The notes beneath the pieces were generated by a model. That model made no database searches. It was not told the DNA's origin and worked only from the letters and a program-made list of their open reading frames with translations. This document shows, in pieces, positions 1 to 47,890 of a stretch of 64,000 nt of DNA. Source of the DNA: Haliotis asinina (lineage: Eukaryota). Location: contig NC_090294.1 in the NCBI RefSeq assembly GCF_037392515.1, positions 7,329,870 to 7,393,869 of the forward strand, written 5' to 3'. Made by a program: the position numbers and the translations under genes. The stretch's first letter is position 1, and every line of letters begins with the position of its first letter.

Positions 1-2112
1 AGACATTATGACATATCTGCCTGAGACGAAATTACGAAAGACGGGAAAACTGACACAACGCACGAGCACAGGATCGGCACACAGCAGCAATGTCACTGTT
101 ACAAGGGGTTGCTATATACACATGTATGTGTAATACTGCAGTCTGTCCACGTGATGACCGCCTGCTTAATAGACTGATGAAATCTCCCAATAGCATGACA
201 TTCTCTCCGAATGTTAACATTATCACCACACTTAAACTAAAAACTACAATAACGTCATTTCCCAGAAGGTATATGCATATACTAGTGCCTTTTCACAAAG
301 GGATTGTAACTATCAATTGTCACAGCACGTATTTATCGCTTACAAACTAAGCATGGTTGTCTTCTGAAAACACGATAAGGTTTCCCTCATGAACTACAGC
401 ATGTTCCCTCGTATTTGTAGACTTTCCTTTGCATGTGTTTCTGATTGCTGTAGCAGAGGGTTAGCATACACGTCCCTCCTTCGCCAGCACGTTGTGTCAT
501 CCCTATTTGATAGCAAGTCATGCACACATCCCTAGGATATAACACAACCGTACAGTGGACTCTGCCTGTAGTGCCAATTCCTGACAGTTACACAAAGGAT
601 TGGGTCGCTTTACTTGACAGCTATTTTCTTTCAAGCAACTCTCCATTTCTTAATATCACCTTTCTGAGGAAGCAGAATTCACTTATCATAAAGGCAACAA
701 TAGTACTGAAACATATACTGGTTACTAAGCAAGACACCAGGTGCTAGCCAACAATTTCTAGTTGTAAATATTTGTTAGATGTTTCACGACCTTTCCATTC
801 GGTCTTCCTTGTTCCAAACTGAAGGAATATTGTCTTTGGATAATTGGATAATGTCTCAACAAATGCTACAATGCAGTGTATATTTGCATGGCTACAGCAA
901 GTTTTAATCACTGTTGCAAGTGATTCACTTCAATAAGTTTTGGGCTTCAAGCGAATGTTTGAAAACAAACAGCAGTAGGAAGAAGAAGTAGAAAACTCGA
1001 CTTTATCCTTCACACAAGCCCTTTACATGATGAAAACAGTCTTCAGTGTGTTCACAGATAATGTTACCCTTGCGTTCAAATCAATCAAGAACTTTATTAC
1101 ATGTCTACCATATCCGATCGGAAACACCCAATTACCGTCTGATTTGATAAATATATACGTTTTGATAGAGATAAATACGTCTCCTGTTAATGAGAGCAGC
1201 GGAATACAAACGGTTATTATATATCATGAAATCTGGAAGCAAACTTCCCCAGTAGTGTACAAAATGCTTGATATTTTCATCAAGTGTTATCGACTATTGA
1301 TAGCATGGTAAATACAACTTTAGTAGTATGTAGTAACTTATGATTCTAGGCTTTTCGTTATGTTTATATGATAAATAAACCGACGGAATGTGCTACAGTA
1401 ACTTCTGATTGTAGACCTTTTCACTTGGAACGGGATACTCACTTGCATTCGAATCGCATACTGTGCACAATGGCTACTACTAAAGATTTCATGCACATGA
1501 AGATGCACACATGACTCAACTCCGAGTATTTTCGGATTTCACAATGACATCACCGAAGCCCTTCGTGGCAGCACAAATGATATATTTGCATGAGACATGG
1601 AACCGAATAAGAGATGGCATGTAGGAAATATATGTGAAGCCTTCAATACCCCTATCATATTCAGTCTCATTTCTCCAGGAAATTCGAAGCACATTTTATA
1701 ACTTGCCGCCAGTGCTTGCAGCAAAACTGATTACCAGTTAAATATTTGGATGTAGTGGAACGTTTTGTAAACGTTGAATTTAGTTTTATGATTTTCAAAC
1801 AAAGCACAAATCGTTTGTATTTTAATTTTTATTGAACCAGTTGTATTGTCATGAGTATACAAAATAAGGAGTAATAAGTTCTCTTCACACTGCAGGTGAC
1901 AGTAACTCAGTAATAGCCGATTCCTGAAACAGAAAGGGTAGTTACATGTAAAATAGGGATTTACGGAAAAGTAACATGGAAATGTTGAAACTATCCCAAG
2001 CATTTCAAACAGCTGACGACAGTTTGAAAGATGTTTATCAGCTGAAAATATCGTATTTGCGTAGAATAATAATAAAGACATGTGTACATGATGTTATTCA
2101 ATAAAGTGAAGT

Positions 2113-2442
2113 TTAAAATGGGATAAGGAGTGAAATTATGTATCGCGAAATACCTTTTCCTAATCCGATTCCATATCCTGGCATTCCGTAGAAACCACCG
2201 TAGCCTCCATACAGACTTCCCAGGCCGTATCCGTATTTGCCTCCATACAGACCGCCCATTCCTCCGTACGGGCCATAGCCGTAGCCTCCGTAAAAACCTC
2301 CGTGCATTGCACCTATTCCGTAGCCTAATACGCCAGCTCCTCCAAACAACCCACCCATTCCATGTGCTCCATACAGACCGGTTGGTTCAGCGAAGGCGGT
2401 AACAGCCAAGCAGACAACAAGGACGGCGACAATCTTCATCAT
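2113..2442 (-). CDS. Secreted Gly/Tyr-rich low-complexity protein (GGY/GYG repeat; shematrin/NLP-like class), array copy 1. Protein: MMKIVAVLVVCLAVTAFA|EPTGLYGAHGMGGLFGGAGVLGYGIGAMHGGFYGGYGYGPYGGMGGLYGGKYGYGLGSLYGGYGGFYGMPGYGIGLGKGISRYIISLLIPF
   Basis: ORF 2113..2556(-). The likely true start is ATGATG at 2442-2437 (minus), giving an N-terminal hydrophobic signal peptide with an A-F-A|E cleavage-like site. The mature part is about 40% Gly and about 17% Tyr with no Cys. The stop is TAA at 2115-2113. A possible 5'UTR acceptor ttactgaacag lies 9 nt upstream of the ATG. A possible alternative donor GKG|gtatttcg lies near the 3' end, so the C-terminus is uncertain. Confidence 0.7.
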   Translation of the reverse strand: MMKIVAVLVVCLAVTAFAEPTGLYGAHGMGGLFGGAGVLGYGIGAMHGGFYGGYGYGPYGGMGGLYGGKYGYGLGSLYGGYGGFYGMPGYGIGLGKGISRYIISLLIPF

Positions 2443-5292
2443 TTTGAGTATCTGTTCAGTAACATGAAAATCATCTTCATGACAGGGAAACAACATGTTA
2501 TCATTACTCGTCTGGAGATTTTTCTCCACGGCACACGTGATCAATGATATTATCATGTTTTATTTCACAAGCAACCACATATTTCCACACTGACAAGAAC
2601 GGTAAATAGCACTTACACAGTCACAGTTTACTGAATTGGATCAATGTAAAAGTTGAGAAAGTAGAGGTGTGCAGCAAAAGAATGAAAACGTCAGACTGCA
2701 CATGCTTACCACAGGCAAACCTTGAAATGGTACTTACAATTTGGTCTGAAGACGTAACTGTGTCCTAGCAGTTGATGAAGAAAGAGATGATAGAATATTT
2801 TTCCCCTTACCTTTATATATACAATTTGTGAACTACATGTGATTGATTTACCTTAGGTTGGCCACTTCCAGGTAAGCAACACACCTAAATGTTAATGATG
2901 TGAACTGACCATTCTTTTCGCCTCAAATGACTTGCCTCAGGTTATCACCCTAAGGCTATACATGTGTGCTGGTGTACTTGAACATTCATAAAGGAAGTAG
3001 AGGGTGGTATATAATAGGGTGTAGGTCTCTCTTCGTATATCTTTTTCATCTCTCTTTGGCATGTTTTAACTGCATTTAGAAAACAAATAACTTGCAGGTA
3101 CTCAACTTTGAACCAGTATTAGGCCAATAGTCGTTTAACAGCTGTCTATCCATTACACTTGGGATGGAGCAATGTAGATCAGACATTATGACATATCTGC
3201 CTGAGACGAAATTACGAAAGACGGGAAAACTGACACAACGCACGAGCACAGGATCGGCACACAGCAGCAATGTCACTGTTACAAGGGGTTGCTATATACA
3301 CATGTATGTGTAATACTGCAGTCTGTCCACGTGATGACCGCCTGCTTAATAGACTGATGAAATCTCCCAATAGCATGACATTCTCTCCGAATGTTAACAT
3401 TATCACCACACTTAAACTAAAAACTACAATAACGTCATTTCCCAGAAGGTATATGCATATACTAGTGCCTTTTCACAAAGGGATTGTAACTATCAATTGT
3501 CACAGCACGTATTTATCGCTTACAAACTAAGCATGGTTGTCTTCGGAAAACACGATAAGGTTTCCCTCATGAACTACAGCATGTTCCCTCGTATTTGTAG
3601 ACTTTCCTTTGCATGTGTTTCTGATTGCTGTAGCAGAGGGTTAGCATACACGTCCCTCCTTCGCCAGCACGTTGTGTCATCCCTATTTGATAGCAAGTCA
3701 TGCACACATCCCTAGGATATAACACAACCGTACAGTGGACTCTGCCTGTAGTGCCAATTCCTGACAGTTACACAAAGGATTGGGTCGCTTTACTTGACAG
3801 CTATTTTCTTTCAAGCAACTCTCCATTTCTTAATATCACCTTTCTGAGGAAGCAGAATTCACTTATCATAAAGGCAACAATAGTACTGAAACATATACTG
3901 GTTACTAAGTAAGACACCAGGTGCTAGCCAACAATTTCTAGTTGTAAATATTTGTTAGATGTTTCACGACCTTTCCATTCGGTCTTCCTTGTTCCAAACT
4001 GAAGGAAAATTGTCTTTGGATAATTGGATAATGTCTCAACAAATGCTACAATGCAGTGTATATTTGCATGGCTACAGCAAGTTTTAATCACTGTTGCAAG
4101 TGATTCACTTCAATAAGTTTTGGGCTTCAAGCGAATGTTTGAAAACAAACAGCAGTAGGAAGAAGAAGTAGAAAACTCGACTTTATCCTTCACACAAGCC
4201 CTTTGCATGATGAAAACAGTCTTCAGTGTGTTCACAGATAATGTTACCCTTGCGTTCAAATCAATCAAGAACTTTATTACATGTCTACCATATCCGATCG
4301 GAAACACCCAATTACCGTCTGATTTGATAAATATATACGTTTTGATAGAGATAAATACGTCTCCTGTTAATGAGAGCAGCGGAATACAAACGGTTATTAT
4401 ATATCATGAAATCTGGAAGCAAACTTCCCCAGTAGTGTACAAAATGCTTGATATTTTCATCAAGTGTTATCGACTATTGATAGCATGGTAAATACAACTT
4501 TAGTAGTATGTAGTAACTTATGATTCTAGGCTTTTCGTTATGTTTATATGATAAATAAACCGACGGAATGTGCTACAGTAACTTCTGATTGTAGACCTTT
4601 TCACTTGGAACGGGATACTCACTTGCATTCGAATCGCATACTGTGCACAATGGCTACTACTAAAGATTTCATGCACATGAAGATGCACACATGACTCAAC
4701 TCCGAGTATTTTCGGATTTCACAATGACATCACCGAAGCCCTTCGTGGCAGCACAAATGATATATTTGCATGAGAGATGGAACCGAATAAGAGATGGCAT
4801 GTAGGAAATATATGTGAAGCCTTCAATACCCCTATCATATTCAGTCTCATTTCTCCAGGAAATTCGAAGCACATTTTATAACTTGCCGCCAGTGCTTGCA
4901 GCAAAACTGATTACCAGTTAAATATTTGGATGTAGTGGAACGTTTTGTAAACGTTGAATTTAGTTTTATGATTTTCAAACAAAGCACAAATCGTTTGTAT
5001 TTTAATTTTTATTGAACCAGTTGTATTGTCATGAGTATACAAAATAAGGAGTAATAAGTTCTCTTCACACTGCAGGTGACAGTAACTCAGTAATAGCCGA
5101 TTCCTGAAACAGAAAGGGTAGTTACATGTAAAATAGGGATTTACGGAAAAGTAACATGGAAATGTTGAAACTATCCCAAGCATTTCAAACAGCTGACGAC
5201 AGTTTGAAAGATGTTTATCAGCTGAAAATATCGTATTTGCGTAGAATAATAATAAAGACATGTGTACATGATGTTATTCAATAAAGTGAAGT

Positions 5293-5622
5293 TTAAAATG
5301 GGATAAGGAGTGAAATTATGTATCGCGAAATACCTTTTCCTAATCCGATTCCATATCCTGGCATTCCGTAGAAACCACCGTAGCCTCCATACAGACTTCC
5401 CAGGCCGTATCCGTATTTGCCTCCATACAGACCGCCCATTCCTCCGTACGGGCCATAGCCGTAGCCTCCGTAAAAACCTCCGTGCATTGCACCTATTCCG
5501 TAGCCTAATACGCCAGCTCCTCCAAACAACCCACCCATTCCATGTGCTCCATACAGACCGGTTGGTTCAGCGAAGGCGGTAACAGCCAAGCAGACAACAA
5601 GGACGGCGACAATCTTCATCAT
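5293..5622 (-). CDS. Secreted Gly/Tyr-rich protein, array copy 2 (identical protein)
   Basis: ORF 5293..5736(-) has an identical translation to copy 1. Confidence 0.7.
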   Translation of the reverse strand: MMKIVAVLVVCLAVTAFAEPTGLYGAHGMGGLFGGAGVLGYGIGAMHGGFYGGYGYGPYGGMGGLYGGKYGYGLGSLYGGYGGFYGMPGYGIGLGKGISRYIISLLIPF

Positions 5623-8472
5623 TTTGAGTATCTGTTCAGTAACATGAAAATCATCTTCATGACAGGGAAACAACATGTTATCATTACTCGTCTGGAGATT
5701 TTTCTCCACGGCACACGTGATCAATGATATTATCATGTTTTATTTCACAAGCAACCACATATTTCCACACTGACAAGAACGGTAAATAGCACTTACACAG
5801 TCACAGTTTACTGAATTGGATCAATGTAAAAGTTGAGAAAGTAGAGGTGTGCAGCAAAAGAATGAAAACGTCAGACTGCACATGCTTACCACAGGCAAAC
5901 CTTGAAATGGTACTTACAATTTGGTCTGAAGACGTAACTGTGTCCTAGCAGTTGATGAAGAAAGAGATGATAGAATATTTTTCCCCTTACCTTTATATAT
6001 ACAATTTGTGAACTACATGTGATTGATTTACCTTAGGTTGGCCACTTCCAGGTAAGCAACACACCTAAATGTTAATGATGTGAACTGACCATTCTTTTCG
6101 CCTCAAATGACTTGCCTCAGGTTATCACCCTAAGGCTATACATGTGTGCTGGTGTACTTGAACATTCATAAAGGAAGTAGAGGGTGGTATATAATAGGGT
6201 GTAGGTCTCTCTTCGTATATCTTTTTCATCTCTCTTTGGCATGTTTTAACTGCATTTAGAAAACAAATAACTTGCAGGTACTCAACTTTGAACCAGTATT
6301 AGGCCAATAGTCGTTTAACAGCTGTCTATCCATTACACTTGGGATGGAGCAATGTAGATCAGACATTATGACATATCTGCCTGAGACGAAATTACGAAAG
6401 ACGGGAAAACTGACACAACGCACGAGCACAGGATCGGCACACAGCAGCAATGTCACTGTTACAAGGGGTTGCTATATACACATGTATGTGTAATACTGCA
6501 GTCTGTCCACGTGATGACCGCCTGCTTAATAGACTGATGAAATCTCCCAATAGCATGACATTCTCTCCGAATGTTAACATTATCACCACACTTAAACTAA
6601 AAACTACAATAACGTCATTTCCCAGAAGGTATATGCATATACTAGTGCCTTTTCACAAAGGGATTGTAACTATCAATTGTCACAGCACGTATTTATCGCT
6701 TACAAACTAAGCATGGTTGTCTTCGGAAAACACGATAAGGTTTCCCTCATGAACTACAGCATGTTCCCTCGTATTTGTAGACTTTCCTTTGCATGTGTTT
6801 CTGATTGCTGTAGCAGAGGGTTAGCATACACGTCCCTCCTTCGCCAGCACGTTGTGTCATCCCTATTTGATAGCAAGTCATGCACACATCCCTAGGATAT
6901 AACACAACCGTACAGTGGACTCTGCCTGTAGTGCCAATTCCTGACAGTTACACAAAGGATTGGGTCGCTTTACTTGACAGCTATTTTCTTTCAAGCAACT
7001 CTCCATTTCTTAATATCACCTTTCTGAGGAAGCAGAATTCACTTATCATAAAGGCAACAATAGTACTGAAACATATACTGGTTACTAAGTAAGACACCAG
7101 GTGCTAGCCAACAATTTCTAGTTGTAAATATTTGTTAGATGTTTCACGACCTTTCCATTCGGTCTTCCTTGTTCCAAACTGAAGGAAAATTGTCTTTGGA
7201 TAATTGGATAATGTCTCAACAAATGCTACAATGCAGTGTATATTTGCATGGCTACAGCAAGTTTTAATCACTGTTGCAAGTGATTCACTTCAATAAGTTT
7301 TGGGCTTCAAGCGAATGTTTGAAAACAAACAGCAGTAGGAAGAAGAAGTAGAAAACTCGACTTTATCCTTCACACAAGCCCTTTGCATGATGAAAACAGT
7401 CTTCAGTGTGTTCACAGATAATGTTACCCTTGCGTTCAAATCAATCAAGAACTTTATTACATGTCTACCATATCCGATCGGAAACACCCAATTACCGTCT
7501 GATTTGATAAATATATACGTTTTGATAGAGATAAATACGTCTCCTGTTAATGAGAGCAGCGGAATACAAACGGTTATTATATATCATGAAATCTGGAAGC
7601 AAACTTCCCCAGTAGTGTACAAAATGCTTGATATTTTCATCAAGTGTTATCGACTATTGATAGCATGGTAAATACAACTTTAGTAGTATGTAGTAACTTA
7701 TGATTCTAGGCTTTTCGTTATGTTTATATGATAAATAAACCGACGGAATGTGCTACAGTAACTTCTGATTGTAGACCTTTTCACTTGGAACGGGATACTC
7801 ACTTGCATTCGAATCGCATACTGTGCACAATGGCTACTACTAAAGATTTCATGCACATGAAGATGCACACATGACTCAACTCCGAGTATTTTCGGATTTC
7901 ACAATGACATCACCGAAGCCCTTCGTGGCAGCACAAATGATATATTTGCATGAGACATGGAACCGAATAAGAGATGGCATGTAGGAAATATATGTGAAGC
8001 CTTCAATACCCCTATCATATTCAGTCTCATTTCTCCAGGAAATTCGAAGCACATTTTATAACTTGCCGCCAGTGCTTGCAGCAAAACTGATTACCAGTTA
8101 AATATTTGGATGTAGTGGAACGTTTTGTAAACGTTGAATTTAGTTTTATGATTTTCAAACAAAGCACAAATCGTTTGTATTTTAATTTTTATTGAACCAG
8201 TTGTATTGTCATGAGTATACAAAATAAGGAGTAATAAGTTCTCTTCACACTGCAGGTGACAGTAACTCAGTAATAGCCGATTCCTGAAACAGAAAGGGTA
8301 GTTACATGTAAAATAGGGATTTACGGAAAAGTAACATGGAAATGTTGAAACTATCCCAAGCATTTCAAACAGCTGACGACAGTTTGAAAGATGTTTATCA
8401 GCTGAAAATATCGTATTTGCGTAGAATAATAATAAAGACATGTGTACATGATGTTATTCAATAAAGTGAAGT

Positions 8473-8802
8473 TTAAAATGGGATAAGGAGTGAAATTATG
8501 TATCGCGAAATACCTTTTCCTAATCCGATTCCATATCCTGGCATTCCGTAGAAACCACCGTAGCCTCCATACAGACTTCCCAGGCCGTATCCGTATTTGC
8601 CTCCATACAGACCGCCCATTCCTCCGTACGGGCCATAGCCGTAGCCTCCGTAAAAACCTCCGTGCATTGCACCTATTCCGTAGCCTAATACGCCAGCTCC
8701 TCCAAACAACCCACCCATTCCATGTGCTCCATACAGACCGGTTGGTTCAGCGAAGGCGGTAACAGCCAAGCAGACAACAAGGACGGCGACAATCTTCATC
8801 AT
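8473..8802 (-). CDS. Secreted Gly/Tyr-rich protein, array copy 3 (identical protein)
   Basis: ORF 8473..8916(-) has an identical translation. Confidence 0.7.
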   Translation of the reverse strand: MMKIVAVLVVCLAVTAFAEPTGLYGAHGMGGLFGGAGVLGYGIGAMHGGFYGGYGYGPYGGMGGLYGGKYGYGLGSLYGGYGGFYGMPGYGIGLGKGISRYIISLLIPF

Positions 8803-11652
8803 TTTGAGTATCTGTTCAGTAACATGAAAATCATCTTCATGACAGGGAAACAACATGTTATCATTACTCGTCTGGAGATTTTTCTCCACGGCACACGTGA
8901 TCAATGATATTATCATGTTTTATTTCACAAGCAACCACATATTTCCACACTGACAAGAACGGTAAATAGCACTTACACAGTCACAGTTTACTGAATTGGA
9001 TCAATGTAAAAGTTGAGAAAGTAGAGGTGTGCAGCAAAAGAATGAAAACGTCAGACTGCACATGCTTACCACAGGCAAACCTTGAAATGGTACTTACAAT
9101 TTGGTCTGAAGACGTAACTGTGTCCTAGCAGTTGATGAAGAAAGAGATGATAGAATATTTTTCCCCTTACCTTTATATATACAATTTGTGAACTACATGT
9201 GATTGATTTACCTTAGGTTGGCCACTTCCAGGTAAGCAACACACCTAAATGTTAATGATGTGAACTGACCATTCTTTTCGCCTCAAATGACTTGCCTCAG
9301 GTTATCACCCTAAGGCTATACATGTGTGCTGGTGTACTTGAACATTCATAAAGGAAGTAGAGGGTGGTATATAATAGGGTGTAGGTCTCTCTTCGTATAT
9401 CTTTTTCATCTCTCTTTGGCATGTTTTAACTGCATTTAGAAAACAAATAACTTGCAGGTACTCAACTTTGAACCAGTATTAGGCCAATAGTCGTTTAACA
9501 GCTGTCTATCCATTACACTTGGGATGGAGCAATGTAGATCAGACATTATGACATATCTGCCTGAGACGAAATTACGAAAGACGGGAAAACTGACACAACG
9601 CACGAGCACAGGATCGGCACACAGCAGCAATGTCACTGTTACAAGGGGTTGCTATATACACATGTATGTGTAATACTGCAGTCTGTCCACGTGATGACCG
9701 CCTGCTTAATAGACTGATGAAATCTCCCAATAGCATGACATTCTCTCCGAATGTTAACATTATCACCACACTTAAACTAAAAACTACAATAACGTCATTT
9801 CCCAGAAGGTATATGCATATACTAGTGCCTTTTCACAAAGGGATTGTAACTATCAATTGTCACAGCACGTATTTATCGCTTACAAACTAAGCATGGTTGT
9901 CTTCGGAAAACACGATAAGGTTTCCCTCATGAACTACAGCATGTTCCCTCGTATTTGTAGACTTTCCTTTGCATGTGTTTCTGATTGCTGTAGCAGAGGG
10001 TTAGCATACACGTCCCTCCTTCGCCAGCACGTTGTGTCATCCCTATTTGATAGCAAGTCATGCACACATCCCTAGGATATAACACAACCGTACAGTGGAC
10101 TCTGCCTGTAGTGCCAATTCCTGACAGTTACACAAAGGATTGGGTCGCTTTACTTGACAGCTATTTTCTTTCAAGCAACTCTCCATTTCTTAATATCACC
10201 TTTCTGAGGAAGCAGAATTCACTTATCATAAAGGCAACAATAGTACTGAAACATATACTGGTTACTAAGTAAGACACCAGGTGCTAGCCAACAATTTCTA
10301 GTTGTAAATATTTGTTAGATGTTTCACGACCTTTCCATTCGGTCTTCCTTGTTCCAAACTGAAGGAAAATTGTCTTTGGATAATTGGATAATGTCTCAAC
10401 AAATGCTACAATGCAGTGTATATTTGCATGGCTACAGCAAGTTTTAATCACTGTTGCAAGTGATTCACTTCAATAAGTTTTGGGCTTCAAGCGAATGTTT
10501 GAAAACAAACAGCAGTAGGAAGAAGAAGTAGAAAACTCGACTTTATCCTTCACACAAGCCCTTTGCATGATGAAAACAGTCTTCAGTGTGTTCACAGATA
10601 ATGTTACCCTTGCGTTCAAATCAATCAAGAACTTTATTACATGTCTACCATATCCGATCGGAAACACCCAATTACCGTCTGATTTGATAAATATATACGT
10701 TTTGATAGAGATAAATACGTCTCCTGTTAATGAGAGCAGCGGAATACAAACGGTTATTATATATCATGAAATCTGGAAGCAAACTTCCCCAGTAGTGTAC
10801 AAAATGCTTGATATTTTCATCAAGTGTTATCGACTATTGATAGCATGGTAAATACAACTTTAGTAGTATGTAGTAACTTATGATTCTAGGCTTTTCGTTA
10901 TGTTTATATGATAAATAAACCGACGGAATGTGCTACAGTAACTTCTGATTGTAGACCTTTTCACTTGGAACGGGATACTCACTTGCATTCGAATCGCATA
11001 CTGTGCACAATGGCTACTACTAAAGATTTCATGCACATGAAGATGCACACATGACTCAACTCCGAGTATTTTCGGATTTCACAATGACATCACCGAAGCC
11101 CTTCGTGGCAGCACAAATGATATATTTGCATGAGAGATGGAACCGAATAAGAGATGGCATGTAGGAAATATATGTGAAGCCTTCAATACCCCTATCATAT
11201 TCAGTCTCATTTCTCCAGGAAATTCGAAGCACATTTTATAACTTGCCGCCAGTGCTTGCAGCAAAACTGATTACCAGTTAAATATTTGGATGTAGTGGAA
11301 CGTTTTGTAAACGTTGAATTTAGTTTTATGATTTTCAAACAAAGCACAAATCGTTTGTATTTTAATTTTTATTGAACCAGTTGTATTGTCATGAGTATAC
11401 AAAATAAGGAGTAATAAGTTCTCTTCACACTGCAGGTGACAGTAACTCAGTAATAGCCGATTCCTGAAACAGAAAGGGTAGTTACATGTAAAATAGGGAT
11501 TTACGGAAAAGTAACATGGAAATGTTGAAACTATCCCAAGCATTTCAAACAGCTGACGACAGTTTGAAAGATGTTTATCAGCTGAAAATATCGTATTTGC
11601 GTAGAATAATAATAAAGACATGTGTACATGATGTTATTCAATAAAGTGAAGT

Positions 11653-11982
11653 TTAAAATGGGATAAGGAGTGAAATTATGTATCGCGAAATACCTTTTCC
11701 TAATCCGATTCCATATCCTGGCATTCCGTAGAAACCACCGTAGCCTCCATACAGACTTCCCAGGCCGTATCCGTATTTGCCTCCATACAGACCGCCCATT
11801 CCTCCGTACGGGCCATAGCCGTAGCCTCCGTAAAAACCTCCGTGCATTGCACCTATTCCGTAGCCTAATACGCCAGCTCCTCCAAACAACCCACCCATTC
11901 CATGTGCTCCATACAGACCGGTTGGTTCAGCGAAGGCGGTAACAGCCAAGCAGACAACAAGGACGGCGACAATCTTCATCAT
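11653..11982 (-). CDS. Secreted Gly/Tyr-rich protein, array copy 4 (identical protein)
   Basis: ORF 11653..12096(-) has an identical translation. Confidence 0.7.
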   Translation of the reverse strand: MMKIVAVLVVCLAVTAFAEPTGLYGAHGMGGLFGGAGVLGYGIGAMHGGFYGGYGYGPYGGMGGLYGGKYGYGLGSLYGGYGGFYGMPGYGIGLGKGISRYIISLLIPF

Positions 11983-14832
11983 TTTGAGTATCTGTTCAGT
12001 AACATGAAAATCATCTTCATGACAGGGAAACAACATGTTATCATTACTCGTCTGGAGATTTTTCTCCACGGCACACGTGATCAATGATATTATCATGTTT
12101 TATTTCACAAGCAACCACATATTTCCACACTGACAAGAACGGTAAATAGCACTTACACAGTCACAGTTTACTGAATTGGATCAATGTAAACGTTGAGAAA
12201 GTAGAGGTGTGCAGCAAAAGAATGAAAACGTCAGACTGCACATGCTTACCACAGGCAAACCTTGAAATGGTACTTACAATTTGGTCTGAAGACGTAACTG
12301 TGTCCTAGCAGTTGATGAAGAAAGAGATGATAGAATATTTTTCCCCTTACCTTTATATATACAATTTGTGAACTACATGTGATTGATTTACCTTAGGTTG
12401 GCCACTTCCAGGTAAGCAACACACCTAAATGTTAATGATGTGAACTGACCATTCTTTTCGCCTCAAATGACTTGCCTCAGGTTATCACCCTAAGGCTATA
12501 CATGTGTGCTGGTGTACTTGAACATTCATAAAGGAAGTAGAGGGTGGTATATAATAGGGTGTAGGTCTCTCTTCGTATATCTTTTTCATCTCTCTTTGGC
12601 ATGTTTTAACTGCATTTAGAAAACAAATAACTTGCAGGTACTCAACTTTGAACCAGTATTAGGCCAATAGTCGTTTAACAGCTGTCTATCCATTACACTT
12701 GGGATGGAGCAATGTAGATCAGACATTATGACATATCTGCCTGAGACGAAATTACGAAAGACGGGAAAACTGACACAACGCACGAGCACAGGATCGGCAC
12801 ACAGCAGCAATGTCACTGTTACAAGGGGTTGCTATATACACATGTATGTGTAATACTGCAGTCTGTCCACGTGATGACCGCCTGCTTAATAGACTGATGA
12901 AATCTCCCAATAGCATGACATTCTCTCCGAATGTTAACATTATCACCACACTTAAACTAAAAACTACAATAACGTCATTTCCCAGAAGGTATATGCATAT
13001 ACTAGTGCCTTTTCACAAAGGGATTGTAACTATCAATTGTCACAGCACGTATTTATCGCTTACAAACTAAGCATGGTTGTCTTCGGAAAACACGATAAGG
13101 TTTCCCTCATGAACTACAGCATGTTCCCTCGTATTTGTAGACTTTCCTTTGCATGTGTTTCTGATTGCTGTAGCAGAGGGTTAGCATACACGTCCCTCCT
13201 TCGCCAGCACGTTGTGTCATCCCTATTTGATAGCAAGTCATGCACACATCCCTAGGATATAACACAACCGTACAGTGGACTCTGCCTGTAGTGCCAATTC
13301 CTGACAGTTACACAAAGGATTGGGTCGCTTTACTTGACAGCTATTTTCTTTCAAGCAACTCTCCATTTCTTAATATCACCTTTCTGAGGAAGCAGAATTC
13401 ACTTATCATAAAGGCAACAATAGTACTGAAACATATACTGGTTACTAAGCAAGACACCAGGTGCTAGCCAACAATTTCTAGTTGTAAATATTTGTTAGAT
13501 GTTTCACGACCTTTCCATTCGGTCTTCCTTGTTCCAAACTGAAGGAATATTGTCTTTGGATAATTGGATAATGTCTCAACAAATGCTACAATGCAGTGTA
13601 TATTTGCATGGCTACAGCAAGTTTTAATCACTGTTGCAAGTGATTCACTTCAATAAGTTTTGGGCTTCAAGCGAATGTTTGAAAACAAACAGCAGTAGGA
13701 AGAAGAAGTAGAAAACTCGACTTTATCCTTCACACAAGCCCTTTGCATGATGAAAACAGTCTTCAGTGTGTTCACAGATAATGTTACCCTTGCGTTCAAA
13801 TCAATCAAGAACTTTATTACATGTCTACCATATCCGATCGGAAACACCCAATTACCGTCTGATTTGATAAATATATACGTTTTGATAGAGATAAATACGT
13901 CTCCTGTTAATGAGAGCAGCGGAATACAAACGGTTATTATATATCATGAAATCTGGAAGCAAACTTCCCCAGTAGTGTACAAAATGCTTGATATTTTCAT
14001 CAAGTGTTATCGACTATTGATAGCATGGTAAATACAACTTTAGTAGTATGTAGTAACTTATGATTCTAGGCTTTTCGTTATGTTTATATGATAAATAAAC
14101 CGACGGAATGTGCTACAGTAACTTCTGATTGTAGACCTTTTCACTTGGAACGGGATACTCACTTGCATTCGAATCGCATACTGTGCACAATGGCTACTAC
14201 TAAAGATTTCATGCACATGAAGATGCACACATGACTCAACTCCGAGTATTTTCGGATTTCACAATGACATCACCGAAGCCCTTCGTGGCAGCACAAATGA
14301 TATATTTGCATGAGAGATGGAACCGAATAAGAGATGGCATGTAGGAAATATATGTGAAGCCTTCAATACCCCTATCATATTCAGTCTCATTTCTCCAGGA
14401 AATTCGAAGCACATTTTATAACTTGCCGCCAGTGCTTGCAGCAAAACTGATTACCAGTTAAATATTTGGATGTAGTGGAACGTTTTGTAAACGTTGAATT
14501 TAGTTTTATGATTTTCAAACAAAGCACAAATCGTTTGTATTTTAATTTTTATTGAACCAGTTGTATTGTCATGAGTATACAAAATAAGGAGTAATAAGTT
14601 CTCTTCACACTGCAGGTGACAGTAACTCAGTAATAGCCGATTCCTGAAACAGAAAGGGTAGTTACATGTAAAATAGGGATTTACGGAAAAGTAACATGGA
14701 AATGTTGAAACTATCCCAAGCATTTCAAACAGCTGACGACAGTTTGAAAGATGTTTATCAGCTGAAAATATCGTATTTGCGTAGAATAATAATAAAGACA
14801 TGTGTACATGATGTTATTCAATAAAGTGAAGT

Positions 14833-15162
14833 TTAAAATGGGATAAGGAGTGAAATTATGTATCGCGAAATACCTTTTCCTAATCCGATTCCATATCCTG
14901 GCATTCCGTAGAAACCACCGTAGCCTCCATACAGACTTCCCAGGCCGTATCCGTATTTGCCTCCATACAGACCGCCCATTCCTCCGTACGGGCCATAGCC
15001 GTAGCCTCCGTAAAAACCTCCGTGCATTGCACCTATTCCGTAGCCTAATACGCCAGCTCCTCCAAACAACCCACCCATTCCATGTGCTCCATACAGACCG
15101 GTTGGTTCAGCGAAGGCGGTAACAGCCAAGCAGACAACAAGGACGGCGACAATCTTCATCAT
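14833..15162 (-). CDS. Secreted Gly/Tyr-rich protein, array copy 5 (identical protein)
   Basis: ORF 14833..15276(-) has an identical translation. Confidence 0.7.
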   Translation of the reverse strand: MMKIVAVLVVCLAVTAFAEPTGLYGAHGMGGLFGGAGVLGYGIGAMHGGFYGGYGYGPYGGMGGLYGGKYGYGLGSLYGGYGGFYGMPGYGIGLGKGISRYIISLLIPF

Positions 15163-18012
15163 TTTGAGTATCTGTTCAGTAACATGAAAATCATCTTCAT
15201 GACAGGGAAACAACATGTTATCATTACTCGTCTGGAGATTTTTCTCCACGGCACACGTGATCAATGATATTATCATGTTTTATTTCACAAGCAACCACAT
15301 ATTTCCACACTGACAAGAACGGTAAATAGCACTTACACAGTCACAGTTTACTGAATTGGATCAATGTAAAAGTTGAGAAAGTAGAGGTGTGCAGCAAAAG
15401 AATGAAAACGTCAGACTGCACATGCTTACCACAGGCAAACCTTGAAATGGTACTTACAATTTGGTCTGAAGACGTAACTGTGTCCTAGCAGTTGATGAAG
15501 AAAGAGATGATAGAATATTTTTCCCCTTACCTTTATATATACAATTTGTGAACTACATGTGATTGATTTACCTTAGGTTGGCCACTTCCAGGTAAGCAAC
15601 ACACCTAAATGTTAATGATGTGAACTGACCATTCTTTTCGCCTCAAATGACTTGCCTCAGGTTATCACCCTAAGGCTATACATGTGTGCTGGTGTACTTG
15701 AACATTCATAAAGGAAGTAGAGGGTGGTATATAATAGGGTGTAGGTCTCTCTTCGTATATCTTTTTCATCTCTCTTTGGCATGTTTTAACTGCATTTAGA
15801 AAACAAATAACTTGCAGGTACTCAACTTTGAACCAGTATTAGGCCAATAGTCGTTTAACAGCTGTCTATCCATTACACTTGGGATGGAGCAATGTAGATC
15901 AGACATTATGACATATCTGCCTGAGACGAAATTACGAAAGACGGGAAAACTGACACAACGCACGAGCACAGGATCGGCACACAGCAGCAATGTCACTGTT
16001 ACAAGGGGTTGCTATATACACATGTATGTGTAATACTGCAGTCTGTCCACGTGATGACCGCCTGCTTAATAGACTGATGAAATCTCCCAATAGCATGACA
16101 TTCTCTCCGAATGTTAACATTATCACCACACTTAAACTAAAAACTACAATAACGTCATTTCCCAGAAGGTATATGCATATACTAGTGCCTTTTCACAAAG
16201 GGATTGTAACTATCAATTGTCACAGCACGTATTTATCGCTTACAAACTAAGCATGGTTGTCTTCGGAAAACACGATAAGGTTTCCCTCATGAACTACAGC
16301 ATGTTCCCTCGTATTTGTAGACTTTCCTTTGCATGTGTTTCTGATTGCTGTAGCAGAGGGTTAGCATACACGTCCCTCCTTCGCCAGCACGTTGTGTCAT
16401 CCCTATTTGATAGCAAGGCATGCACACATCCCTAGGATATAACACAACCGTACAGTGGACTCTGCCTGTAGTGCCAATTCCTGACAGTTACACAAAGGAT
16501 TGGGTCGCTTTACTTGACAGCTATTTTCTTTCAAGCAACTCTCCATTTCTTAATATCACCTTTCTGAGGAAGCAGAATTCACTTATCATAAAGGCAACAA
16601 TAGTACTGAAACATATACTGGTTACTAAGCAAGACACCAGGTGCTAGCCAACAATTTCTAGTTGTAAATATTTGTTAGATGTTTCACGACCTTTCCATTC
16701 GGTCTTCCTTGTTCCAAACTGAAGGAATATTGTCTTTGGATAATTGGATAATGTCTCAACAAATGCTACAATGCAGTGTATATTTGCATGGCTACAGCAA
16801 GTTTTAATCACTGTTGCAAGTGATTCACTTCAATAAGTTTTGGGCTTCAAGCGAATGTTTGAAAACAAACAGCAGTAGGAAGAAGAAGTAGAAAACTCGA
16901 CTTTATCCTTCACACAAGCCCTTTGCATGATGAAAACAGTCTTCAGTGTGTTCACAGATAATGTTACCCTTGCGTTCAAATCAATCAAGAACTTTATTAC
17001 ATGTCTACCATATCCGATCGGAAACACCCAATTACCGTCTGATTTGATAAATATATACGTTTTGATAGAGATAAATACGTCTCCTGTTAATGAGAGCAGC
17101 GGAATACAAACGGTTATTATATATCATGAAATCTGGAAGCAAACTTCCCCAGTAGTGTACAAAATGCTTGATATTTTCATCAAGTGTTATCGACTATTGA
17201 TAGCATGGTAAATACAACTTTAGTAGTATGTAGTAACTTATGATTCTAGGCTTTTCGTTATGTTTATATGATAAATAAACCGACGGAATGTGCTACAGTA
17301 ACTTCTGATTGTAGACCTTTTCACTTGGAACGGGATACTCACTTGCATTCGAATCGCATACTGTGCACAATGGCTACTACTAAAGATTTCATGCACATGA
17401 AGATGCACACATGACTCAACTCCGAGTATTTTCGGATTTCACAATGACATCACCGAAGCCCTTCGTGGCAGCACAAATGATATATTTGCATGAGAGATGG
17501 AACCGAATAAGAGATGGCATGTAGGAAATATATGTGAAGCCTTCAATACCCCTATCATATTCAGTCTCATTTCTCCAGGAAATTCGAAGCACATTTTATA
17601 ACTTGCCGCCAGTGCTTGCAGCAAAACTGATTACCAGTTAAATATTTGGATGTAGTGGAACGTTTTGTAAACGTTGAATTTAGTTTTATGATTTTCAAAC
17701 AAAGCACAAATCGTTTGTATTTTAATTTTTATTGAACCAGTTGTATTGTCATGAGTATACAAAATAAGGAGTAATAAGTTCTCTTCACACTGCAGGTGAC
17801 AGTAACTCAGTAATAGCCGATTCCTGAAACAGAAAGGGTAGTTACATGTAAAATAGGGATTTACGGAAAAGTAACATGGAAATGTTGAAACTATCCCAAG
17901 CATTTCAAACAGCTGACGACAGTTTGAAAGATGTTTATCAGCTGAAAATATCGTATTTGCGTAGAATAATAATAAAGACATGTGTACATGATGTTATTCA
18001 ATAAAGTGAAGT

Positions 18013-18342
18013 TTAAAATGGGATAAGGAGTGAAATTATGTATCGCGAAATACCTTTTCCTAATCCGATTCCATATCCTGGCATTCCGTAGAAACCACCG
18101 TAGCCTCCATACAGACTTCCCAGGCCGTATCCGTATTTGCCTCCATACAGACCGCCCATTCCTCCGTACGGGCCATAGCCGTAGCCTCCGTAAAAACCTC
18201 CGTGCATTGCACCTATTCCGTAGCCTAATACGCCAGCTCCTCCAAACAACCCACCCATTCCATGTGCTCCATACAGACCGGTTGGTTCAGCGAAGGCGGT
18301 AACAGCCAAGCAGACAACAAGGACGGCGACAATCTTCATCAT
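18013..18342 (-). CDS. Secreted Gly/Tyr-rich protein, array copy 6 (identical protein)
   Basis: ORF 18013..18456(-) has an identical translation. Confidence 0.7.
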   Translation of the reverse strand: MMKIVAVLVVCLAVTAFAEPTGLYGAHGMGGLFGGAGVLGYGIGAMHGGFYGGYGYGPYGGMGGLYGGKYGYGLGSLYGGYGGFYGMPGYGIGLGKGISRYIISLLIPF

Positions 18343-19080
18343 TTTGAGTATCTGTTCAGTAACATGAAAATCATCTTCATGACAGGGAAACAACATGTTA
18401 TCATTACTCGTCTGGAGATTTTTCTCCACGGCACACGTGATCAATGATATTATCATGTTTTATTTCACAAGCAACCACATATTTCCACACTGACAAGAAC
18501 GGTAAATAGCACTTACACAGTCACAGTTTACTGAATTGGATCAATGTAAAAGTTGAGAAAGTAGAGGTGTGCAGCAAAAGAATGAAAACGTCAGACTGCA
18601 CATGCTTACCACAGGCAAACCTTGAAATGGTACTTACAATTTGGTCTGAAGACGTAACTGTGTCCTAGCAGTTGATGAAGAAAGAGATGATAGAATATTT
18701 TTCCCCTTACCTTTATATATACAATTTGTGAACTACATGTGATTGATTTACCTTAGGTTGGCCACTTCCAGGTAAGCAACACACCTAAATGTTAATGATG
18801 TGAACTGACCATTCTTTTCGCCTCAAATGACTTGCCTCAGGTTATCACCCTAAGGCTATACATGTGTGCTGGTGTACTTGAACATTCATAAAGGAAGTAG
18901 AGGGTGGTATATAATAGGGTGTAGGTCTCTCTTCGTATATCTTTTTCATCTCTCTTTGGCATGTTTTAACTGCATTTAGAAAACAAATAACTTGCAGGTA
19001 CTCAACTTTGAACCAGTATTAGGCCAATAGTCGTTTAACAGCTGTCTATCCATTACACTTGGGATGGAGCAATGTAGATC

Positions 19081-20115
19081 AGACATTATGACATATCTGC
19101 CTGAGACGAAATTACGAAAGACGGGAAAACTGACACAACGCACGAGCACAGGATCGGCACACAGCAGCAATGTCACTGTTACAAGGGGTTGCTATATACA
19201 CATGTATGTGTAATACTGCAGTCTGTCCACGTGATGACCGCCTGCTTAATAGACTGATGAAATCTCCCAATAGCATGACATTCTCTCCGAATGTTAACAT
19301 TATCACCACACTTAAACTAAAAACTACAATAACGTCATTTCCCAGAAGGTATATGCATATACTAGTGACTTTTCACAAAGGGATTGTAACTATCAATTGT
19401 CACAGCACGTATTTATCGCTTACAAACTAAGCATGGTTTCCCTCATGAACTACAGCATGTTCCTCGTATTTGTAGACTTTCCTTTGCATGTGTTTCTGAT
19501 TGCTGTAGCAGAGGGTTAGCATACACGTCCCTCCTTCGCCAGCTTGATATTTTCATCAGGTGTTATCGACTAATGATAGCATGGTAGATACAACTTTAGT
19601 AGTATGTAGTAACTTATGATTCTAGGCTCTTCGTTTTGTTTGTATGATAAATAAACCGACGGAATGTGCTACAGTAACTTCTGATTGTAGACCTTTTCAC
19701 TTGGAACGGGATACTCACTTGCATTCGAATCGCATACTGTGCACAATGGCTACTACTAAAGATTTCATGCACATGAAGATGCACACATGACTCAACTCCG
19801 AGTATTTTCGGATTTCACAATGACATCACCGAAGCCCTTCGTGGCAGCACAAATGATATATTTGCATGAGAGATGGAACCGAATAAGAGATGGCATGTAG
19901 GAAATATATGTGAAGCCTTCAATACCCCTATCATATTCAGTCTCATTTCTCCAGGAAATTCGAAGCACATTTTATAGGTTGACAGCAGTCGCCACACTTA
20001 CAGCAGTGTCACTGTTATAACGGGTTACTTTGTACACATCTATGTGTAATACTGCTGCCTGTCCATGCGATGACCGCCTTTTGAAATATCCCAATAGCTT
20101 GATATTCTCCCTGAA
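19081..20115. repeat. Degenerate 7th array unit / array boundary: unit positions 1-357 intact, then a 24-bp deletion flanked by ggtt microhomology (at about 19438), a ~780-bp deletion (junction cagc|ttga at about 19548), unit about 1268-1712, then an about 80%-identical fragment of unit 65-235
   Basis: Direct alignment by eye against the unit. Unit sequence ends at cacattttata and re-enters a diverged copy of the unit start (ggttgacagcagtcgccacacttacagcagtgtcactgttataacggg...). This copy lacks the Gly/Tyr ORF. Confidence 0.85.
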
Positions 20116-20400
20116 TGTTAAAGATCACACATACTCTAGTTCAAATATAAAGTACAAGTACAAATATAAAGTACAAATAGTACAAATATAAAGTCACTTG
20201 CTGACATCGCTATAAATGAAACCGAACCATTAAAACTACTCATTTCGACCTTAAATTAACTTATATCGACCTTTTTGTCAGCAGTGCACAATTCCCAGCC
20301 GCGAACGAAATTTCAACCAATCAGAGCAGCGCGTCTCCGTGAGGTAATTGTAGGTATGTAGAAATGAGGGTCTGTGCAGTATTCATCTACATTTCAGGGG

Positions 20401-25254: not shown

Positions 25255-25385
25255 ATCACTATCTACACGTCTACGTGTAATACTGCAGCCTGTCCACACG
25301 ACATACACTAGTGCCTTTTCACAAAGGCACTGCATTTGTCAATTGTCACAGCACGCACTTGTCTACTAAAGATTATACCATACTG
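25255..25385 (+). repeat. Dispersed diverged fragment of the 3.18-kb array unit (matches unit about 120-150 and about 285-350, with about 140 bp deleted)
   Basis: gtgtaatactgcagcctgtccac...actagtgccttttcacaaaggcactgcatttgtcaattgtcacagcacg matches unit gtgtaatactgcagtctgtccac...actagtgccttttcacaaagggattgtaactatcaattgtcacagcacg. Confidence 0.6.
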
Positions 25386-27599: not shown

Positions 27600-28650
27600 T
27601 CATTAATAATATAAATGCCATATACCTGTAAACAGCAAAGGGCACCTCATGATCTTTTCTCATATATCTGCCAAAATCTGTTGAAAGATATCAAATGGTT
27701 TTCGAGTTGTGCTCCGGAAACGAGGTCCGAATTGTTTCCATGGACACCCAGAAAATGACGAATCACAAAAACCTGTAAATAGTGAAAGGCACCACTTTGG
27801 GGTCTGCCATACATATCTGCCAAGTTTTGCTGATAGATATTCAGAATGTTTTTAGTTATGCTCCGGAAACGAAGCCCATTCCTTCATTTTCAGACAAAGT
27901 CCGAATTGTTTCAATGGAACCCGAGAAAATGATAAATCACAAAAACCTGTACATAGCAAAAGGCACCACTTTGGGGTCTGCAACACACATCTGCCAAGTT
28001 TTACTAACAGATATTAAGAAGTTTTTGAGTTCTGCTCCAGAAACGAAACACACCTCTCACTTTTCAGTCTAGGTCAGAAACATTTCCATGGAAACCGAGA
28101 AAATAATACATCACAAGATCCTGTACATAGCAAAAGGCATCACTTCAGCTTCTGACTGATATATTTACCAAGTTCTGCAGAAACATATTGAAAGGCTTTT
28201 GAGTTCTGCTCCAGAAACAAAGCCCACCCCACCATAAGACCAACACCAAAATGTTCCATGGAAAAACAAAAAAAAAATATAAATGCCAAAAATCTGTAAA
28301 TAGCAAAAGGCACAAGCATAGGCTGAGATTACTATATCTATCAAGTTTGGTCTGAAAACATTTAACGGTTTATGAGTTACGCTCCGGAAACAATATGATT
28401 ACGGACGGACAGACGAGGCGTCGACTACATCCCCCCGCATTACATGCCGGGGGGATAAAAACGCCAAAAATCTGTAAATAGCAAAAGGAACAACCATAGG
28501 TTAAGATTACTATATCAAGTTTCGTCTAAAGATACTGGAGGTTTCTGAGTTATGCTCCAGAAACAAAATGATTACAGACGCAAGGATGGATGGGTGGAAG
28601 ACGAGGCCTGGACTATATCCTCCCGCATTACATGCTGGGGGGGGGGGGAT
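27600..28650. repeat. Diverged about 165-175-bp satellite-like tandem repeat, 6 units (conserved core cctgtaaatagcaaaaggcac ... gttatgctccggaaacga ... ccatggaaa)
   Basis: Units begin near 27600, 27771, 27946, 28111, 28285, 28461, at about 70-85% identity. The last two units each end in a C6/G6-stem hairpin (atccccccgcattacatgccggggggat at 28429-28456; a weaker copy at 28617-28650). Confidence 0.75.
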
Positions 28651-32768: not shown

Positions 32769-32774
32769 GCATAC

Positions 32775-33007: not shown

Positions 33008-33084
33008 CTGCATCAAGGTGAGAGGTGAAAGTTCATAAGTAGAGAACACAAAAACTGTAAAGGTATGAACAGGTAATGAGGCAT

Positions 33085-47842: not shown

Positions 47843-47890
<48 letters not shown>

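Follow-up and report, generated by a model that had tools for sequence, protein, structure and literature searches.

A tandem array of small secreted-protein genes

The window analysed here, 64,000 nucleotides of Haliotis asinina chromosome 15 (Chr_15, CM074540.1), opens within a tandem array with a period of exactly 3,180 bp. Six complete units (c1 at 1-3180 through c6 at 15901-19080) are followed by a partial seventh copy, c7; the left end of the window cuts the array, which runs on past it. Self-comparison at a shift of 3180 gave 13 mismatches over the first 16.2 kb and zero indels. Each of the six units is a complete gene, arranged head-to-tail, with an intact spliced CDS for the same 101-aa protein, and, going by the RefSeq accession numbering (XP_067657837-49, a range in which ten models are listed by name), the chromosome would carry about 13 such genes. 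Scans of the window with Rfam at gathering thresholds and for tRNA genes gave no match. The features of the array are as follows:

1..19080, genes on the (-) strand: six complete 3,180-bp units, c1-c6 (self-comparison)
5918..5998, (-) strand: putative promoter and non-coding exon 1 of c2 (read from the sequence)
5334..5622, (-) strand: main coding exon of c2, from Met1 to the first base of Gly97 (spliced CDS translation)
2154-2442, 8514-8802, 11694-11982, 14874-15162 and 18054-18342, (-) strand: main-exon equivalents in the other copies
5087..5103, (-) strand: terminal coding micro-exon of c2, ..G-IGYY-stop, acceptor tttcag (pattern search, translation)
1907-1923, 8267-8283, 11447-11463, 14627-14643 and 17807-17823, (-) strand: micro-exon equivalents in the other copies
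19081..19976, no strand assigned: c7, a gene-less decayed partial copy (blastn of the unit against 19081-20200)

The gene in each unit has three exons, and its product is named "glycine-rich protein-like" in RefSeq. The putative promoter of c2 has TATATAAA at 5998-5991; exon 1 would end at a GTAAGT donor (5917-5912) and be joined to an acceptor (aacag) just before 5631, the use of which agrees with RefSeq model P0005, where ...KETQ/ILKMMK is read across the junction. The main exon encodes a predicted signal peptide, MMKIVAVLVVCLAVTAFA, called by eye with cleavage before EP, and then a Gly/Tyr-rich domain, up to the donor AAAG/GTAT. An AATAAA signal lies 74 nt 3' of the stop codon (unit position 1833). 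The spliced CDS of every full copy translates exactly to the 101-aa RefSeq protein P0004 (listed under XP_067657839-42), of which the mature part (83 aa) has a content of 44.6% Gly and 18.1% Tyr and GKGIGYY as its last residues. RefSeq models in the arrays are partly run-on: those of 979 aa and 1,967 aa, which carry the names 'spidroin-like' and 'PE_PGRS-like', correspond to 7 and 17 fused gene copies.

No Pfam family was found for the Gly-rich protein. In an exhaustive phmmer search, 1.84 billion representatives yielded Haliotis proteins only, apart from one bacterial VCBS repeat protein (P0008) that was rejected as spurious; word-based searches likewise found no homologue beyond Haliotis, and a literature search with peptide sequences of the protein gave no match. 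Another candidate (P0011, 48 bits) was also rejected, as it sits amid Chitin_bind_4 cuticle genes on a Logan contig, which makes it an arthropod protein with a compositional likeness only. The gene family is undescribed and Haliotis-restricted.

Judged from its sequence, the protein belongs to a shematrin-like, silk-like class with a putative structural function. Like the shematrins, glycine-rich framework proteins of the Pinctada shell, and like Has-tsfgr1 of H. asinina (PMC2034539), it is small and predicted to be secreted, its signal peptide being about 17-18 residues long; short repeats rich in Gly, Tyr and Leu are present, and the C-terminal residue is Tyr (that of GKGIGYY here, of GYKGY in Has-tsfgr1). 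Has-tsfgr1 is nevertheless set apart from the 101-aa protein by its description, as a protein of 114 aa with a GGYGLGL motif and the GYKGY end (PMC2034539). The homologue in H. cracherodii is named 'shematrin-like protein 2' by NCBI, and no homology to shematrins was detectable in the exhaustive HMMER search. One variant of the protein (P0003) bears the NCBI name 'neuropeptide-like protein 31'. In C. elegans, the closely similar genes nlp-27 to nlp-31 are clustered in tandem and encode small secreted Gly/Tyr-rich antimicrobial peptides; the likeness of the abalone family to them is compositional only, no homology having been detected.

Variation among copies and decay at the array edge

The copies c1-c6 are all pairwise distinct, with 1-6 differences per pair (pi = 0.00096, about 99.9% DNA identity) and no indels among them. 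The variant matrix, which covers c1-c6 and the partial c7 within the window as a portion of the full H. asinina array, holds eight substitution sites, all non-coding and five of them singletons. With bases given in the order c1 to c6, these are:

Unit 288: CCCCCC, with A in c7; singleton of c7 (window 19368A)
Unit 365: TGGGGG; singleton of c1 (365T)
Unit 518: TTTTTG; singleton of c6 (window 16418G)
Unit 730: CTTTCC; informative, intergenic spacer (window 730, 3910, 7090, 10270, 13450, 16630)
Unit 828: TAAATT; informative, intergenic spacer (window 828, 4008, 7188, 10368, 13548, 16728)
Unit 1025: AGGGGG; singleton of c1 (1025A)
Unit 1596: CGCGGG, with G in c7; C at 1596 (c1) and 7956 (c3), G at 4776, 11136, 14316, 17496 and 19872
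Unit 2651: AAACAA; singleton of c4 (window 12191C), intron 1

All of the sharing patterns described in a first-pass annotation of this DNA are present in the rebuilt matrix, with positions corrected by 1-5 nt (363 to 365, 729 to 730, 827 to 828, 1027 to 1025, 1601 to 1596), as are the singletons that it assigned to copies 4, 6 and 7, each displaced by 1 nt (12190 to 12191, 16417 to 16418, 19367 to 19368). The assembly QV of 65.5 (PMC11393055) predicts approximately 0.005 base errors over 19.4 kb, and therefore the SNPs are not random consensus noise. Seven of the eight variants fall in the spacer, which makes up 57% of the unit length, as against gene plus promoter, a bias that is not significant (p of about 0.08, hand calculation); six are transversions, an excess that is marginal at most (p 0.05-0.47, depending on the assumed spectrum).

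Copy c7 was listed in the first-pass annotation with no mention of its state; its 288A singleton is indeed there, in what is a gene-less, decayed remnant. It retains unit 1-488, with the singleton and deletions of 24 bp (unit 355-378) and 1 bp, and unit 1266-1700, the 777 bp between (unit 489-1265) being deleted; six clustered mismatches lie at unit 1283-1366, and the array ends at window 19976, which is unit position 1700 of c7. Because c7 has G at unit 1596 (window 19872), the C common to c1 and c3 at this site is probably the derived allele. Site 1596 is intergenic, about 215 nt past the inferred poly(A) site, and its context (gagaGatgg) is neither CpG nor repeat.

Two relics of unit sequence lie outside the array:

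19989..20156, (+) strand: relic of unit 74-248, about 79% identity, just past the array end (blastn, nhmmer)
25259-25375: second relic, of unit 112-150 and 275-349, 84-87% identity (blastn, nhmmer)

These relics of unit 74-349 probably belong to a dispersed repeat, a copy of which sits within the unit itself; an origin as remnants of an older array would be a less simple explanation. A 272-aa ORF at 29754-30572 looks PC-esterase-like, but it gave no family in a Pfam search, and this identification is accordingly not claimed.

Sharing of variants within and beyond the window

The three informative sites display two patterns, {2,3,4} against {1,5,6} and {1,3}. The former was taken in the first-pass annotation as part of a reticulate pattern, but it is a contiguous block, fully compatible with local duplication of one mutated unit and not reticulate by itself. 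The conflict arises at site 1596 alone, and the fourth gamete is found only in c1, the copy at the cut window edge. At 730/828/1596, the four unit haplotypes read C-T-C, T-A-G, T-A-C and C-T-G. The four-gamete test that had been proposed as a check fails with the unit boundary placed outside 829-1595 and passes with the boundary inside 829-1595, so that 24% of the phases in which the unit can be cut show no failure; for tandem repeats, the outcome of a four-gamete test hinges on an arbitrary choice of phase. A phase-independent backward search, which allowed whole-number-unit duplications with any breakpoint and let each site mutate once (infinite sites), still required at least one extra event, for which a 2-unit unequal crossover with deletion, conversion and parallel mutation are candidates. 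The assertion that no single order of duplications can give such sharing thus holds under infinite sites; one parallel C/G change would also serve as the extra event. Furthermore, serial duplication is not a true alternative to unequal exchange, because tandem duplication itself works by unequal exchange. A Mantel test of similarity against distance along the array was not significant for the six copies (p = 0.16). Within the window, long-term concerted evolution and a very recent burst with one out-of-register exchange look alike.

Exchange between copies is the likely cause of the SNP sharing, on account of mosaicism in H. cracherodii, the uniformity of a second H. asinina array and the decay of edge copies, and its main support thus comes from outside the window. 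The conclusion of sequence exchange among the copies, as drawn in the first-pass annotation, is probably right, although the argument made for it within the window was overstated, there being one conflicting site. The homologous array of H. cracherodii has 13.8 copies (about 14) with a period of 4.04-4.19 kb and a divergence of 0.1-1.3%, and it is flanked on one side by a Sulfotransfer_2 gene. It has 55 informative sites, with incompatibility in 28% of site pairs and a Hudson-Kaplan Rm of 16; when the columns are limited to clean ones, Rm stays at 10-13 whatever the unit phase. The variants form contiguous blocks with short discordant patches, such as columns 731-750 of copy h12, which lie between the concordant columns 608 and 795. 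Its edge copies are more diverged (terminal partial copy 97.6%, inverted partial copy 95.5%) than the interior (98.7-99.5%), and decayed edge copies suggest a greater age for the loci than the interior copies would indicate. In H. asinina, the second array, known via a run-on model (P0006), has 17 copies and is internally almost invariant.

Copies within an array are closer to each other than to those of other arrays or species: DNA identity within the array of the window is 99.9%, whereas the window type has approximately 87% protein identity to the second H. asinina array and approximately 70% protein identity (67% exon DNA identity) to H. cracherodii. No array junction shared between H. asinina and H. 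cracherodii was found, blastn aligning the coding exon only (67%) with no spacer match, and the unit lengths differ (3,180 bp versus about 4,175 bp). With no alignment between the spacers of H. asinina and H. cracherodii, no ancestral array is demonstrable, and the two arrays may be paralogous or independently expanded. With mu = 8.6e-9, the copies coalesce at approximately 5.6e4 generations in H. asinina and 4.7e5 generations in H. cracherodii. The abalone split dated at 36.4 Myr, the only one in its source, is that of Western versus Eastern Pacific species and may not cover H. asinina.

Probable homogenisation of the array, its alternatives and its significance

The explanation that we favour as probable is that the tandem copies are homogenised by out-of-register exchange, that is, by concerted evolution. 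The array would grow, shrink and homogenise through unequal crossover between units, of sister chromatids or of homologues, with some short-tract gene conversion. Local spread of one mutated unit would have produced the contiguous {c2,c3,c4} block, and at least one later exchange would have put the derived 1596-C into the non-adjacent c1 and c3, whether by a crossover at a 2-unit offset and the later loss of a unit, by unequal crossover of two arrays that differed in composition, or by a conversion patch with its left bound at site 1025. Being at the edge and unable to pair in register on both sides, c7 would escape homogenisation and decay.

These properties resemble those of known concerted tandem arrays (silkmoth chorion genes with localized gene conversion, histone genes, rDNA, trypanosome arrays; one example is PMC1855330), which have the same head-to-tail whole-gene units. 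Near-identity through non-coding spacer, block-shared variants and decayed edges are common to both, as is a much closer relationship of paralogues within an array than between arrays or species; mosaic and incompatible sites are clear in the homologous H. cracherodii array. Unlike those systems, the gene here is an uncharacterised Haliotis-restricted orphan, and the signal of exchange in the window is one site.

The chief competitor is a recent amplification burst in a birth-and-death process, some 1e4-1e5 generations ago, with the out-of-register exchange behind the {c1,c3} pattern as part of it and the copies now diverging independently. Very low diversity with zero indels in c1-c6, the preponderance of singletons (5/8 variants) and the confinement of the family to Haliotis in exhaustive searches all agree with such a burst, as do the unalignable spacers and different unit lengths (3,180 versus about 4,175 bp) of the two species, which give no sign of an old array. 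It is nonetheless unlikely: a separate recent burst would have to be assumed for each of the three arrays (two in H. asinina, one in H. cracherodii), the older array, that of H. cracherodii, displays continuing exchange (Rm of at least 10, short patches) rather than clean nested divergence, and c7 and the inverted and terminal H. cracherodii copies, far more diverged than the interior, imply older loci.

Much less probable is an assembly artefact, in which hifiasm gave the wrong copy order, number or haplotype through a haplotype switch or partial collapse, so that the mosaic would be a mixture of two allelic arrays. Copy number and order are taken solely from a primary hifiasm assembly of an array that is 99.9% identical, made with about 32x HiFi coverage from one SMRT cell, with a mean read of about 13.8 kb (4.3 units) and with neighbouring copies that differ by only 1-5 SNPs. 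On the other hand, the QV is high (65.5; PMC11393055) and all copies are distinguishable. The markers that define the four gametes are 866 bp apart, within single HiFi reads, and would not arise from a wrong arrangement of the copies; the four unit haplotypes stand even if the order is wrong, and a haplotype switch would alter the arguments from adjacency, not the four-gamete result. The independent H. cracherodii assembly has the same kind of array and mosaic. The earlier statement that the copies are physically real is upheld by the six distinct copies, the RefSeq models (XP_067657837-49) and the homologous array in another species. We regard as least probable of all a history free of exchange, with nested duplications and a G-to-C change that occurred twice at site 1596. 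There is a single conflicting site to be explained, and with 6/8 transversions the local mutation spectrum may be unusual. However, with about 9 mutations on 3,180 sites an identical double mutation has p of 0.4% at uniform rates and 1-2% with gamma of 0.5-0.2, rising as high as 2-4% with strong rate heterogeneity; the context of site 1596 marks it as neither CpG nor repeat, and exchange is common in the homologous H. cracherodii array.

Beyond homogenisation of the array in the window, a more tentative possibility is that this genus-restricted orphan family exists as several long arrays (in H. asinina one of about 13 genes, as implied by the accession numbering, and one of 17 fused copies; in H. 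cracherodii one of 14), with rapid divergence between arrays and between species. Unequal exchange and short-tract conversion would homogenise each array over approximately 1e5-1e6 generations. That tandem gene arrays evolve in concert is textbook knowledge, and nothing conceptual is changed by this instance of it. Its value is practical, in documenting an abalone-specific, multi-array family of silk-like or shematrin-like secreted proteins, which could be a clean long-read model for lineage-specific expansion and homogenisation of biomaterial genes. If the proteins are matrix components of the shell or periostracum, the turnover of these arrays in copy number and sequence would offer a concrete mechanism, open to testing, by which the 'rapidly evolving secretome' of mollusc shells could arise.

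Structure and gene content of the array

When the window is compared with a copy of itself offset by exactly 3,180 bp, a near-perfect match extends from 1 to ~19,438, and no indels separate the six full units (c1-c6). The array is already under way at the window start, so the label 'copy 1' and the phase of the unit are arbitrary. All six units are mutually distinct, with a mean pairwise difference of 3.07 sites (pi = 0.00096). The seventh copy (c7) is not an ordinary one: it has deletions of unit positions (coordinates within the 3,180-bp unit, counted from the window start) 355-378, one more base, and 489-1265, as well as six mismatches clustered at 1283-1366, and ends at unit position 1700 (window 19976), short of the gene. 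Diverged same-strand copies (79-87%) of unit positions ~74-349 were noted at 19989-20156, adjoining the array, and at 25259-25375, 5.3 kb beyond it; they are either remnants of far older array copies or a dispersed repeat that occurs inside the unit as well.

Each unit contains one minus-strand gene, listed here for c2, with AATAAA 74 nt past the stop codon.

Features of the c2 gene
5998-5991, minus strand, upstream element TATATAAA
5917, minus strand, GTAAGT donor of a putative non-coding exon
just before 5631, minus strand, acceptor
5622, minus strand, ATG of the main coding exon, which extends to the donor at 5334/5333
5103-5087, minus strand, terminal micro-exon coding (G)IGYY-stop

Translation of the spliced coding sequence gives one 101-aa protein in 6/6 full copies, identical to a database protein (P0004) that RefSeq carries as 'glycine-rich protein-like [Haliotis asinina]' (XP_067657839-42) and the gene for which is located on Chr_15 (CM074540.1) of the published assembly. 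Annotated variants on the same chromosome are F50I (XP_067657846-49), G64S (XP_067657838) and an N-terminally extended model (XP_067657837). Counted by accession numbering, there are ~13 genes of the window type, and thus the window holds only part of the family; no further paralogue was found at 20-64 kb. Gly makes up 44.6% and Tyr 18.1% of the mature part (83 aa), and no Pfam domain was found in the protein. It is similar to Has-tsfgr1 (PMC2034539) and by analogy may function as shematrins and other silk-like structural proteins do (PMC2034539; PMC4944945). Membership of the shematrin family was rejected, and the protein is not to be classed as a shematrin, because HMMER detects no homology. 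The NCBI label 'neuropeptide-like protein 31' on one variant reflects similarity of composition only.

Other features of the window
27735-28218, array of 174-bp period
29754-30572, minus strand, ORF of 272 aa
31516-31999, 20-bp minisatellite TATCCTCCATGGACAGGTTC, 24.2 copies, 98% matches
32609-33088, minus strand, ORF of 159 aa
33073-33596, array of 28/141/197-bp periods
41199-41810, minus strand, ORF of 203 aa, Tc1/mariner-type transposase HTH (PF01498, E = 1.6e-6, below the Pfam cut-off)
47732-47897, (GTGAG)23 then (GA)29
48936-49102, array of 55-bp period
51540-51799, array of 31-bp period
60871-61158, array of 30-bp period

The 203-aa ORF is probably a decayed DNA transposon. The ORFs of 272 and 159 aa, which have no Pfam match at E <= 0.01, may resemble PC-esterase-domain proteins and look like exons of a single host gene. 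The 20-bp minisatellite creates long spurious ORFs in three frames; the other mini- and microsatellites are typical of repeat-rich mollusc intergenic DNA.

Variant sharing among copies in the window

Eight substitution sites make up the variant matrix, all of them non-coding (seven in the spacer 3' of the gene, one in intron 1).

Variant sites by unit position (bases in the order c1-c6; c7 where listed)
288, CCCCCC; c7 A
365, TGGGGG
518, TTTTTG
730, CTTTCC
828, TAAATT
1025, AGGGGG
1596, CGCGGG; c7 G
2651, AAACAA

The sharing patterns reported in the first-pass annotation were all reproduced, with its coordinates shifted by 1-5 nt each. Six of the eight substitutions, which span window positions 288-19368, are transversions (Ts:Tv = 2:6), which is unusual for animal germline variation; the excess is not significant at n = 8 (p 0.05-0.47, varying with the assumed spectrum).

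The primary assembly was built with hifiasm 0.19.7 from 36.2 Gb of HiFi data (2.62 M reads, mean length ~13.8 kb, or 4.3 units) and has a Merqury QV of 65.5 (PMC11393055). An assembly artefact is a minor alternative: random base errors, considered from the outset as a possible source of the variants, cannot account for the eight, since ~0.005 errors are expected over 19.4 kb. Copy order and number come from a primary assembly of a 99.9%-identical array, in which a haplotype switch is possible, but the four unit haplotypes hold whatever the order, because single reads cover the 866 bp between the informative markers.

Only three sites are informative, in two patterns. Sites 730 and 828 set {2,3,4} against {1,5,6}, a contiguous block that is not reticulate alone, because local duplication of one mutated unit accounts for it; the sole source of conflict is site 1596 ({1,3}). 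The proposed four-gamete test (730-828/1596) fails in the window phase, where T-A/G, T-A/C, C-T/G and, in c1 alone, C-T/C are all seen, but passes with three gametes if the unit boundary is moved to 829-1595. Because the boundary of a tandem unit is arbitrary and the result shifts with it, a phase-independent backward search was run, in which a tandem duplication could span any integer number of units and break anywhere, and each site could mutate once. Getting from the ordered marker string back to a single unit took at least one extra event; unseen copies beyond the left end of the window leave the conflict standing, since the string C-Y-G-Y-C-Y-G-X contains it by itself. The earlier argument that no single duplication order could produce such sharing is thus formally right under infinite sites, with one site behind it.

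The extra event may have been an unequal crossover at a two-unit offset with one unit lost afterwards, one unequal crossover involving two arrays that differ in composition, a conversion patch over 1596 starting after 1025, or a parallel G-to-C mutation at 1596, 1596-C being probably derived because c7 carries G. The last of these has p ~0.4% under uniform rates and 1-2% under strong rate heterogeneity. Copies c1-c6 do not become significantly less similar the farther apart they lie (Mantel p = 0.16).

Related arrays in Haliotis

An exhaustive HMMER scan covering 1.84 billion representatives gave homologues in Haliotis only. The H. cracherodii homologue, annotated as 'shematrin-like protein 2', was compared over a locus of 74.6 kb (JAJLRC010000001.1:76,392,502-76,467,095, merged without conflicts) with 13.8 head-to-tail copies, a period of 4,042-4,192 bp and pairwise divergence of 0.1-1.3%. 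Only the coding exon aligns with that of H. asinina (67% DNA identity), and the spacers of the two species do not align. Adjacent H. cracherodii copies are clearly more similar than remote ones. Its 13 full units (h1-h13) have 100 variable sites, 55 of them informative, with 28% of site pairs incompatible and a Hudson-Kaplan Rm of 16; restricting the matrix to SNP columns with clean flanks gives an Rm of 10-13 whatever the unit phase, far above the 1-2 double hits expected from recurrent mutation. The contiguous blocks {h2-h4}, {h5-h7} and {h8-h13} of the ordered matrix fit local unequal exchange. Other patches are short and discordant, as would fit conversion of short tracts between copies that are not neighbours: at columns 731-750 the alleles of h12 are those of h2-h8, with concordant columns 608 and 795 on either side, and alleles are common to {h8,h9,h12}, {h8,h9,h11} and {h2,h3,h8,h9,h11}. 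On either side of an internal block that stands apart, h1 and h9-h13 have alleles in common, an arrangement that matches {1,5,6} against {2,3,4} in the window.

An inverted partial unit including the signal-peptide exon lies at 4883-6536 of the merged locus, ~2.6 kb upstream of the direct array (start near 9112). The terminal partial copy is 97.6% and the inverted partial 95.5% identical, versus 98.7-99.5% for interior copies; the 95.5% value is consistent with escape of the inverted copy from homogenisation.

A second H. asinina array (type B) is on the same chromosome as the window array, and XP_067657820 (P0006, 1,967 aa) is a read-through of 17 of its copies. At the protein level type B copies hardly vary, yet their identity with the window type is ~87%; copies 10, 11 and 13 carry an I-to-T variant that 12 lacks, a skip-one pattern like that of {c1,c3}. 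Several H. cracherodii gene models are likewise run-ons, each joining tandem copies (2, 3 or 7). RefSeq models that skip the terminal micro-exon continue into further tandem copies (H. asinina P0006; H. cracherodii P0009/P0007/P0010; loci L001-L003), giving artefactual proteins of 1,967, 979, 346 and 200 aa (17, 7, 3 and 2 fused copies of the ~101-aa gene) named 'PE_PGRS54-like', 'spidroin-1-like' and 'shematrin-like'.

Probable concerted evolution and alternative histories

Ordinary concerted evolution is the best-supported reading: out-of-register recombination would make arrays grow, shrink and homogenise, short conversions would add mosaicism, and edge or inverted copies would escape homogenisation and then decay. 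The first-pass annotation had reached this conclusion, probably rightly, from in-window evidence of one site and by phase-dependent logic. With mu = 8.6e-9 per site per generation, copies coalesce ~5.6e4 generations ago in H. asinina and ~4.7e5 in H. cracherodii; the sole abalone split dated in the same source, between Western and Eastern Pacific species at 36.4 Myr, may not include H. asinina among its taxa (10.1101/2024.09.16.613283).

The main rival, in which each array was amplified in a very recent burst, is compatible with the window data, but it needs three independent events and leaves both the decayed edges and the continuing mosaicism in H. cracherodii unexplained. Pure homoplasy is a minor rival, which in the window would amount to the parallel mutation at 1596.

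No published account of the protein sequence or of the array was found in the literature searched. Mechanistically, the H. asinina array probably belongs with other homogenised tandem gene arrays.
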